Origin: Myxococcota bacterium
Lineage (GTDB): Bacteria > Myxococcota_A > UBA796 > GCA-2862545
Length of the DNA stretch: 64,000 nt
NCBI GenBank assembly: GCA_044356535.1
Contig: JBIKWC010000004.1
Coordinates: 14,707 to 78,706 of the forward strand
Direction: 5' to 3'
The stretch's first letter is position 1. Every line of letters begins with the position of its first letter. Below, piece after piece: positions 27,330 through 29,012 of the stretch. The position numbers and the translations under genes are program-made. Under the pieces are notes generated by a model. The model made no database searches. It worked only from the letters and a program-made list of their open reading frames with translations, and had not been told where the DNA came from.

Positions 27330-29012
27330 CTACCAGTGCTCGGAGATCCAGCCTCCGAGGTCACAGACCCCGTCGACCGCGTTCTGGACCCCGCCGTAGA
27401 GGTCTCCGCCGAACCCGACGAACCCCGCGCCGAGCCCGACCAGACCGCCCGCGACGCCGCCCAGGACCGTCCCGGCCACGTCTCCGAGCACCCCGTTGTC
27501 CTCGGCGATCCCGTCGTGGACTGCATGGTAGCAGTCCTCCCCGTTCTGCAGTGCGAAGTCCAGCGAGGTCAGGTGGTGCACGGTTCCGTCCGGGTCCACC
27601 GTCGGTTCGCCCCACGTGTCCTCCTCCGCGCGGCGGTGGTGTCCGGAGGCGGCGAGGCCCAGCGCGGCGCCCGGAACCGCGACCGGGGCTGCCGCCAGGC
27701 AGGCCAGAGCCTCACCCCCGACGCCGGCCGCGCCGAGCCCGCTCCCGATCGCGATCGCGCCCGCGGTGGTGTCGAGCAGGCCGTACTCGAGGTTCTCGGA
27801 GGCCACCGCCGGATCGCCGGCCGCGGCGTTCAGGAGCTCCCCGATCCCGTCACCAGCCTGCATAGCGCCGCCGAACGCGCCGGCGATCCCGAGCCCGCGA
27901 CCCATGGCGGTCGGCCCACCGTGCGCCGCCTCCGCGACCGAGGCCGCCTCCGCGGTGGCGAGCGGCTCTGCCACGGATTCGAGGACCGCGGCGGGCGCGG
28001 ATGCCTCGGCTGCCTCGGCGGCTTCGGCGTCGGCCGAAAGGGCCTGCGCGATGTCCTCGCACATCTGCGCCATGTCCGGCGACGACGGTGTGGGCAGCGT
28101 CCCTTCCGGCGCGATCAGCGGCGCTCCGGTCGATCGGGCGATCCGGTCGGCCTCGAGGATCTCGGCGACCTCGTCGGCGCTCGCCAGCGCAAGCGTGCGC
28201 TGCTGCTCGAACACGAGGCTGCCGGCCTCCTCGAGGGCCGCCATGCTGGAATACCGGCCGGGAGTGCCGGGCATCGGGCTCCGGTACTGGGTGCCTCCGC
28301 CGGACTGCGCGAACGCCGGACTGATCTCGCCCGCCTCCACCACGAGCCCGCCGTCGCCGACCGTGTAGTCCCACTCTTCGGGGTGGAAGGGGAGCGCCTC
28401 GCCCGTCGCCGAGAAGTCGGGCGCGAGCGCCCGCGCCTCCATCGCCACGCCGTCGGGGGAGAAGTAGGTCCCACGGCTGGGCCCGAACCGATCCACCGGC
28501 GTCCGTGCGGGGAGCGTCGTGCGGACGGGCTCCCCCACGCCGCCGCCGTTGGGCGGCCAGTTGATGTCGCGGAAGCGGGTCGGGACCTCCATCGGGTCGA
28601 AGGGCCGTCCCAGGGACCCGAGGGGCCGGTCGAGCGCCGGGCTCATGGTGATCGGTGCGTGGGGAGCGGAGTGCTCCGAGGACATCGCGTGCGACACGGC
28701 GTGCCCGAACTCGGGGACGTGGGTGGCGTGCCCGGCGGCGGCGAGCGGCGAGTGCCCTTCGTGCGCCGCTCCCTCGTGGTCCACCTCGGGCTCCGACCAC
28801 GCGGGGGACGCTGGGGCGGAGGTCGATGCAGCCGCGGACGGCGCCGGCACCGCTACGAGCGTGCTGGCTAGCGCCGCGTTCCCGTAGGGCGCGTCGGCGA
28901 ACGAGGTGTCGGGCTCACACCCGAACGCCGCCTCCCGGTCCAACGAAGCCCGGGCTTCGAGCTCGGCGCGATGGACCGTCTCCTCGTCGAGCGGCAGGTA
29001 GCAACGTCCCAT
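27330..29012 (-). CDS. signal-less protein with central TNT-like (PF14021-type) NAD+ glycohydrolase domain and Gly/Ala-rich glycine-zipper C-terminus
   Basis: Motif set INWPPNGGG...PVDRFGPSRGTYFSPDG...RALAP...GEISPAFAQSGGGTQY matches the TNT domain consensus from memory. ATG preceded by GGAGGG. C-terminal repeated GxxxG-type hydrophobic segments. Confidence 0.55.
   Translation of the reverse strand: MGRCYLPLDEETVHRAELEARASLDREAAFGCEPDTSFADAPYGNAALASTLVAVPAPSAAASTSAPASPAWSEPEVDHEGAAHEGHSPLAAAGHATHVPEFGHAVSHAMSSEHSAPHAPITMSPALDRPLGSLGRPFDPMEVPTRFRDINWPPNGGGVGEPVRTTLPARTPVDRFGPSRGTYFSPDGVAMEARALAPDFSATGEALPFHPEEWDYTVGDGGLVVEAGEISPAFAQSGGGTQYRSPMPGTPGRYSSMAALEEAGSLVFEQQRTLALASADEVAEILEADRIARSTGAPLIAPEGTLPTPSSPDMAQMCEDIAQALSADAEAAEAAEASAPAAVLESVAEPLATAEAASVAEAAHGGPTAMGRGLGIAGAFGGAMQAGDGIGELLNAAAGDPAVASENLEYGLLDTTAGAIAIGSGLGAAGVGGEALACLAAAPVAVPGAALGLAASGHHRRAEEDTWGEPTVDPDGTVHHLTSLDFALQNGEDCYHAVHDGIAEDNGVLGDVAGTVLGGVAGGLVGLGAGFVGFGGDLYGGVQNAVDGVCDLGGWISEHW

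Follow-up and report, generated by a model that had tools for sequence, protein, structure and literature searches.

The gene at 27330..29012 on the reverse strand of a 64,000-nucleotide stretch of contig JBIKWC010000004.1 (hereafter the window), from a Myxococcota bacterium, encodes a 560-aa acidic protein (pI 4.3, no Lys) in which a TNT-family NAD+ glycohydrolase domain is followed by a Gly/Ala-rich C-terminal module. The TNT domain is a real member of its family, and its active site is intact, which points to NAD(P)+ glycohydrolase activity. The tail is best regarded as a new, conserved domain not described before, and it defines a very rare Myxococcota (Kofleriaceae-type) protein family. 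TNT NADases are potent toxins that have been studied in Mycobacterium tuberculosis, where IFT acts as the inhibitor, and in fungi, where the enzymes are secreted co-translationally. An intact bacterial TNT without a signal peptide, trafficking domain or linked inhibitor raises the questions of how its producer avoids NAD+ collapse and how a target is reached. The favoured, still tentative answer, to which somewhat less than an even chance is given, is a toxin with a membrane-inserting module that would act as translocator, pore or both.

The gene itself is well supported, and the coordinates proposed in the first-pass annotation, stop codon included, are sound. Its ATG lies at 29012, 71 nt past the stop of the upstream gene (29084-32440), and is preceded by a Shine-Dalgarno-like sequence, GGGGAGGG (29017..29024, reverse strand), read directly from the sequence, whose GGAGG core stands 5 nt before the ATG. 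GC contents at codon positions 1, 2 and 3 (GC1/2/3) are 0.76/0.57/0.90 over the whole of 27330-29012, a coding pattern that is lost when the frame is extended upstream beyond 29012, where the values are 0.83/0.79/0.64. The protein start, MGRCYLPLDEE, is similar to MGHLYCLEPMSED of the homologue P0002, and a public assembly carries an identical 560-aa gene call. Two competing open reading frames (ORFs) were discarded: the long reverse-strand ORF 27330-31340 is a spurious product of the high GC content (73%), the true start being the ATG at 29012, and the antisense ORF 27336-28871 on the forward strand has a third codon position that coincides with sense position 1 (GC 0.76) and an Arg-rich junk product. 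Scans for a promoter and a terminator around the gene found nothing, a result that is uninformative at 73% GC.

The TNT domain

The TNT domain and its conserved flanks occupy residues 131-275 (28188..28622, reverse strand), with evidence from Pfam, phmmer, Foldseek and the family alignment A5. The first-pass annotation had proposed a TNT-like domain, and this assignment is confirmed by profile, predicted structure and residue evidence. TNT (PF14021) is the single Pfam match (E 9.5e-15; 55.3 bits against a gathering score of 27), spanning residues 166-265 (28218-28517) and positions 1-84 of the 88 in the model. In phmmer searches, the nearest solved structures are the fungal TNT-type NADases 6yge, 8pms and 8r15 (E about 3e-4). 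The AlphaFold2 (AF2) model, built from a 10-sequence family alignment, contains a beta-rich domain of seven strands at residues 163-273, predicted with moderate confidence and with a predicted local distance difference test score (pLDDT) of about 80 in the core strands of the TNT fold. Foldseek aligns this model to 8pms_A (E 2e-4, probability 1.00, TM(target) 0.46, 131 columns) and returns no other significant match.

The catalytic residues can be followed one by one. Mutagenesis of the Aspergillus fumigatus enzyme AfNADase defines D128/R129/F130/F137/R148/Q194 (PMC7955114), and that of M. tuberculosis TNT singles out Y765, Q822 and two motifs, DRxG and QRxL (PMC6398120). Residues D174/R175/F176/Y183/R194/Q242 of the target align to the fungal set, and the same residues preserve the equivalents of D756/R757/Y765/R780/Q822 of the mycobacterial enzyme. 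D174-R175-F176-G177 lies residue by residue over the DRFG of AfNADase, and the aromatic residue eight positions after the Arg is Y183 (Y765 in M. tuberculosis, F137 in AfNADase). The salt-bridge partner of the Asp in DRxG corresponds to R194, placed in 'EARAL' over the fungal 'ERSL' (R780/R148 equivalent) and present in every member aligned in A5 but P0002, while the catalytic Gln is Q242, in 'GGGTQY' over 'GMGTQF' (Q822/Q194 equivalent). Across A5, R175, G177 and G181 are nearly invariant, and F234, G238 and Q242 are invariant. The Arg-aromatic-Gln triad is also retained in the paralogous members P0002, P0003, P0005 and P0013, a pattern that speaks for selection on activity.

As had been noted from the sequence, the domain lies inside the protein and not at its C-terminus: it reaches to about residue 275 of the 560, and the Pfam match is followed by about 295 residues. 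Nearly all TNT-only matches checked carry TNT within about 50 residues of the C-terminus, and among the closest TNT-only relatives it forms the C-terminal domain of 1300-3900-aa proteins, an arrangement typical of polymorphic toxins. An internal TNT is nevertheless not unique to the target, since in P0007 and P0008, too, the domain is followed by 350-420 residues. These two proteins (706 and 2322 aa, respectively) belong to the closest TNT-only relatives, and the 'SLAPVDLAAM' repeats that follow TNT in P0007 recall a 'SPDMAQM' motif of the target family, which hints that both may represent a wider TNT clade with a common C-terminal extension.

CpnT of M. tuberculosis, together with IFT (PF14021; PDB 4QLP), represents the same catalytic family, with DRxG and the Tyr765/Arg780/Gln822 equivalents in common, and it likewise lacks a Sec signal peptide. 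However, CpnT has an N-terminal channel/membrane domain and places TNT at the extreme C-terminus, whereas the order is reversed in the target, with TNT first and the Gly-rich module after it. In addition, cpnT is co-operonic with ift and esxEF in an actinobacterial host, while the target has no adjacent immunity or Esx-like gene and a Myxococcota-like host. AfNADase (NadA; 6YGE/8PMS) is the best solved match by both sequence (E about 3e-4) and fold (E 2e-4); equivalents of its R129/F137/Q194 are conserved in the target, and no immunity protein is known for either. The fungal NADases differ in being glycosylated, disulfide-bonded homodimers that are secreted by way of a signal peptide and possess an N-terminal 'thumb' domain as well as a Ca2+ site; the target has none of these features.

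The C-terminal module and its family

TNT is connected to the module by an Ala/Glu-rich helical linker (residues 276-365; 27918..28187, reverse strand), for which AF2 predicts helices at 279-295 and 312-337. The linker holds the family motif PSSPDMAQMCEDI at residues 309-321, and this motif, generalised as EPxSPDMAxMxDD[IM], recurs in P0002, P0003, P0005 and P0019, sometimes on both sides of TNT. The helical module that follows (residues 366-560; 27333..27917, reverse strand) was delimited by homology search, alignment A3 and AF2, and its composition reaches 26% Ala and 23% Gly in residues 366-460 and 33% Gly in residues 506-560. Kyte-Doolittle averages over 19 residues (KD-19) identify two hydrophobic windows, at 419-457 (maximum 1.92) and 507-542 (maximum 1.80). 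The first lies in Gly/Ala segment 1 (residues 417-457; 27642..27764, reverse strand), which has no charged residue in 435-457 and contains a conserved PPVAV...GL..AG pattern. The second corresponds to Gly-rich segment 2, GGVAGGLVGLGAGFVGFGGDLYGGV (residues 507-542; 27387..27494, reverse strand), the most conserved stretch of the family. Between them, composition, AF2, charge counts and alignments define an acidic His-rich loop, HHRRAEEDTWGEPTVDPDGTVHHLTSLDF...CYHAVHD (residues 458-506; 27495..27641, reverse strand), which carries charges of +2/-12, six His residues and a predicted beta-hairpin at 471-479; G457, G468, F486, Y495, H499 and D500 are conserved in this region. Apart from RR460-461, the flanks of the segments contain no basic residue and 5/12/3 acidic ones.

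The module is conserved as a unit, with a mean column identity of 47% in A3. Its members have in common (near-)invariant Gly residues, F486, Y495, H499-D500, the pattern GG.AGGLVGLGAG.VG.GGDL and a C-terminal WSW[LM]TD. The AF2 model of the module is all-helical (pLDDT about 72), and its fold neighbours are only weak, generic helical or membrane-bundle proteins. No match to the module was found in Pfam, NCBIfam or the sequences of the PDB, and neither the module nor five homologues matched DUF6861 or a similar Pfam glycine-zipper family at E<=10. The first-pass annotation had described repeated segments of this tail as looking like membrane-inserting glycine zippers. Its Gly/Ala richness and two hydrophobic segments stand, but the motif count is mostly an effect of composition. 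In shuffles that preserve composition, 13.7 +/- 3.5 small-xxx-small-xxx-small patterns are expected, so that the 22 observed are a modest excess (p about 0.014), and GxxxG motifs are not enriched. The count is weak evidence alone, and the conservation of Gly positions across homologues is the stronger argument. What the tail constitutes is a conserved module of ~190 aa that also occurs without TNT, rather than mere low complexity or generic zippers.

The family is small. An exhaustive HMMER search of 1.84 billion representatives returned 454 matches, nearly all of them TNT-only, and the module is common to only about 10 of the 1.84e9 representatives. Word-index homology searches, limited by low complexity, gave one match with the whole protein as query, two with the profile of the module and none with the TNT region. 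Locus scans gave one match from genome contigs, in a Kofleriaceae metagenome-assembled genome (MAG), and 0 and 1 from two metagenome sets; long contigs were too few to assess secretion-system linkage. The gene content of the window fits Myxococcota, with many Ser/Thr kinases, BatA/VWA and HtrA, and sigma54-type regulators occur near the relatives. Profile searches of the six-frame translation found no paralogue of TNT or of the module elsewhere in the window.

TNT and module occur together in P0002, P0003 and P0005, whereas P0017, P0019, P0075, P0100 and a protein of locus L011 carry the module without any TNT. The TNT of P0001 has lost its DRxG...R core, and that of P0002 its D/R salt-bridge pair. 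Because the module is found with an intact, an absent or a broken TNT, it is the constant core of the family, and TNT is an optional, exchangeable payload cassette. By analogy, this resembles the logic of polymorphic toxins with inverted polarity. The loop-plus-zipper unit of the module is duplicated in P0003, P0004 and P0005, and homologues begin with acidic, His-rich N-termini in which a DPxxW motif is frequent; none carries a signal peptide.

Several features of individual members and of composition were recorded alongside. P0001 (L001 2133-3344) and P0005 (L006 8001-9836) lie in syntenic loci with genes for a VIT-domain protein, an FHA-sigma54 activator and a Ser/Thr kinase-TPR protein. 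An internal deletion in P0001 removes the DRxG...Arg core and leaves the C-terminal module in place, which looks like a natural loss of the enzyme cassette. The TNT-less member of L011 (3168-4340, forward strand; 390 aa) contains three tandem DDGIPPMLRRP repeats near its N-terminus and repeated 'G.G[IV]P.[ML].[AT]G' units before the conserved module. Avoidance of Lys as a signal (e.g., for ubiquitin evasion) was considered and rejected: Lys is absent from the target and 8 of 9 homologues, but the background is itself very poor in Lys, with K/(K+R) of only 0.05-0.08 in many neighbouring genes and no Lys in another window gene of 488 aa (5948-7414, reverse strand; arylsulfotransferase-like). The absence of Lys cannot be called selected from these data.

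Delivery, immunity and competing explanations

The N-terminal region (residues 1-130; 28623..29012, reverse strand), characterised by composition, hydropathy, AF2 and Pfam, begins with a short predicted helix at residues 10-29. The remainder, up to residue 130, is Ala/Pro/Ser/His-rich, acidic and mostly disordered, with an AF2 pLDDT of 30-35 over residues 31-125. A hydropathy and composition heuristic detects no signal peptide: residues 1-40 are net acidic without a hydrophobic run, and the sole N-terminal KD-19 peak is 1.23, at residues 46-64. The earlier observation that no Sec, Tat or lipoprotein-type N-terminus is present is thereby borne out. Its companion claim, that the protein is cytoplasmic, does not follow and is unproven, because substrates of type I, VI and VII secretion systems (T1SS, T6SS and T7SS), CpnT included, lack a signal peptide as well. 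The N-terminal 158 aa have no Pfam match even at E<=10, and Pfam and NCBIfam reveal no domain besides TNT, and no trafficking or secretion domain, in the protein or its homologues.

Downstream of the gene, a convergent histidine kinase of GAF-HisKA-HATPase_c architecture by Pfam (26094..27314, forward strand; a 407-aa call in L002) ends at 27314, 15 bp from the stop of the TNT gene. Both this convergent kinase and the lack of an adjacent immunity gene had been reported in the first-pass annotation; the former agrees with Pfam and the coordinates, and the latter extends to nine homologous loci with gene context. On the other side, 71 nt upstream, Pfam and NCBIfam identify an 1118-aa Trans_reg_C, AAA/NB-ARC-like and TPR regulator (29084..32440, reverse strand), which is treated here as context and not as a partner. 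A region of ~300 aa at its N-terminus (residues 1-300) has no family match before the Trans_reg_C-AAA-TPR part, and a second regulator, of Trans_reg_C-AAA/NACHT type, lies 16 kb off at 11986-13224 on the forward strand.

An upstream signalling or regulatory gene on the same strand is found in four loci: a Trans_reg_C-AAA-TPR gene at the target, an extracytoplasmic function (ECF) sigma factor gene at P0002, and a Ser/Thr kinase-TPR gene next to an FHA-sigma54 activator at P0005 and P0001. These regulators are mutually non-homologous, and similar ones are frequent in this genome. A conserved upstream partner was rejected, as the target regulator and the P0005 kinase have only weak TPR-level similarity (E 0.016). 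A common sigma54 or ECF promoter was discarded as well: a sigma54-like -24/-12 element, GGCAC-N6-TGC, occurs about 13 nt before the P0005 ATG (L006 about 7975-7990), adjoining the sigma54 activator gene, but the upstream regions of the target and of three other members gave no equivalent. In the Kofleriaceae MAG (L003 9505-11552, reverse strand), P0002 is convergent with genes of a bacterial microcompartment (BMC) locus, encoding a tandem-BMC-domain shell protein and an aldehyde dehydrogenase, and is preceded by the ECF sigma factor gene. The scanned parts of the window contain no mobile-element or defence genes near the TNT gene, and PADLOC gives no match for the TNT protein or the upstream regulator. 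The neighbours are housekeeping and regulatory genes on an ordinary chromosome of even GC, with no defence island.

The combination of an enzyme with a Gly-rich tail invites comparison with known delivery systems. Polymorphic toxin-immunity systems (CpnT-IFT, T6SS, T7SS/LXG, contact-dependent inhibition and Rhs) possess an N-terminal trafficking domain, a C-terminal toxin and a co-directional downstream immunity gene, all of which the target lacks. Another comparison group is formed by Tse6 of Pseudomonas aeruginosa, a T6SS effector with a transmembrane translocation region, and the T6SS effector Tde1 of Agrobacterium tumefaciens. In Tde1, a glycine-zipper region drives membrane permeabilisation and translocation (PMC10240207), and fusions of DUF6861 glycine-zipper domains to various toxins, TNT included, are reported (bioRxiv 10.1101/2022.08.23.504947). 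Like the target, Tde1, the DUF6861 fusions and Tse6 join an enzyme toxin to a Gly-rich hydrophobic helical region and have no signal peptide; in these effectors, the region would permeabilise or traverse the cytoplasmic membrane of the attacked cell. However, the membrane region in this group, Tse6 included, is a short N-terminal one to which an adaptor or chaperone (Tap1, Eag) attaches, and the genes lie among immunity and T6SS genes, whereas the target module is C-terminal, about 190 aa long and equipped with an acidic His-rich loop, with no adaptor, immunity or T6SS linkage. At best, the target may work like these proteins without being one of them.

Colicin pore domains and the T domain of diphtheria toxin, which are amphitropic pore-forming or translocation domains, provide another analogy. 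The target module is likewise predicted to be a soluble helical bundle around uncharged hydrophobic helices with Asp/Glu/His-rich flanks, which suggests that insertion could be conditional and driven by pH or membrane potential. There is no sequence or significant fold similarity to either domain, and the Gly content of the target is far higher.

The membrane-active toxin proposed above would accordingly be described as follows. The protein would be made in a soluble, acidic form (pI 4.3), and its module would insert conditionally into the target membrane; solubility and conditional insertion are proposed because the hydrophobic segments are bracketed by Asp/Glu/His rather than Lys/Arg, an arrangement that seems unlike a resident inner-membrane protein and reminiscent of amphitropic toxin domains. 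The inserted module would then carry the NADase across the membrane, form a pore, or do both, and depletion of NAD(P)+ would kill the target cell. Export would use a route unlinked to the TNT gene, and self-protection might depend on an unlinked factor, autoinhibition or tight transcriptional control by the neighbouring regulators. A bolder generalisation is doubtful: the module might represent a new class of self-contained, membrane-active Myxococcota toxin scaffold with optional N-terminal payloads, here a fully competent TNT NADase, requiring neither a secretion domain nor linked immunity. Such a scaffold could translocate itself and its payload from the C-terminal end, in the manner of an inverted polymorphic toxin, or could belong to a transcriptionally gated suicide effector of myxobacterial development or phage defence. 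If the module were a C-terminal membrane-insertion or translocation device, the known design rules of toxin delivery would be widened, and it could be used as a compact protein-delivery or pore unit; if it belonged to a gated suicide effector, no earlier TNT-type NADase would be known to act in that way.

A number of observations weigh against a membrane-inserting toxin. The adjacent genes of the nine loci for which gene context is available include neither a conserved neighbour nor an immunity candidate. The downstream gene is convergent in six of the nine (encoding a kinase, a BMC-T shell protein, a TetR regulator or unknown proteins), and in the others it is an unrelated co-directional amidase or unknown gene, with nothing conserved; the lack of a linked immunity gene is unusual for interbacterial toxins. 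No secretion-system, T6SS or adaptor genes occur in the scanned parts of the window, and no member has a signal peptide or a PAAR, Rhs, LXG, MIX, DUF6861 or other trafficking domain. GxxxG motifs (12 against 9.6 in shuffles) and peak hydrophobicity do not exceed composition-matched chance, and the structure models, derived from 10 sequences, are of only moderate confidence (pLDDT 64 and 72).

The strongest competitor, with perhaps one chance in four, is a cell-autonomous suicide effector that is not exported. Normally kept silent or autoinhibited, it would be activated by regulators encoded nearby when the cell meets phage or stress or enters myxobacterial developmental lysis, and would then kill its own cell through NAD+ depletion combined with membrane damage by the Gly-rich module. 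Such an effector would need neither an immunity gene nor an export signal, in keeping with the absence of a signal peptide, of a trafficking domain and of an immunity-like neighbour in the nine loci, and the same-strand signalling genes upstream in four loci are also consistent with it. NADase and membrane-disrupting modules are the two commonest effector types in abortive infection (Thoeris, CBASS and similar systems). On the other hand, the protein has no sensor domain, neither it nor its upstream neighbour is matched by PADLOC, and the gene resides on ordinary chromosome rather than in a defence island or mobile element. The upstream regulators differ, are non-homologous and are abundant in the genome, such that their adjacency may be due to chance, and TNT domains have so far been known only as exported toxins.

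The two other roles are less likely because of the charges that flank the segments and the intact catalytic set. In one of them, which is improbable, the module would be a constitutive inner-membrane anchor of 2-4 helices with a non-toxic role, and TNT, tethered on its cytoplasmic side, would be an accessory for NAD(P) processing or NAD binding that is either low in activity or regulated. Two segments above the classical KD threshold of 1.6, a family core function that must be independent of the NADase in TNT-less members, and the chromosomal, monocistronic, non-island context agree with such a protein. Nevertheless, hydrophobic segments flanked almost only by acidic residues run contrary to the positive-inside rule, the module resembles no known membrane protein family, and all the catalytic residues of a very fast NADase are retained. 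Active cytoplasmic TNT without its inhibitor is lethal in M. tuberculosis and Escherichia coli (PMC6398120, PMC7955114), which also counts against a resident anchor. A structural Gly-rich protein with a dead, vestigial TNT relic is very improbable: the degenerate TNT of P0001 and P0002 and the large low-complexity or disordered parts of the target would suit it, but the target keeps every essential residue (DRxG, Tyr, the QRxL-type Arg and Gln), its Pfam score is twice the cutoff, and its predicted fold, with a pLDDT of about 80 in the core strands, matches AfNADase.

Other genes of the window

Several further genes in the window were recorded. The reverse-strand gene at 46995-49844 encodes a 949-aa protein with MVP_shoulder (E 3e-27) and Vault_3 (E 8e-8) matches, which are domains of the eukaryotic major vault protein (MVP), so that this may be a bacterial MVP-like gene, and an SPFH/Band_7 gene (42157-43239, reverse strand) lies a few kb away. 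An 815-aa ORF at 13133-15580 on the reverse strand has a signal peptidase II (Peptidase_A8) match confined to residues 658-803; its 5' end is probably over-extended, or it overlaps with another gene. Finally, a 443-aa ORF at 61040-62371 on the forward strand, which has a strong coding signature (GC3 0.95), encodes an extremely acidic product containing 61 Asp and Glu residues against 6 Lys and Arg.

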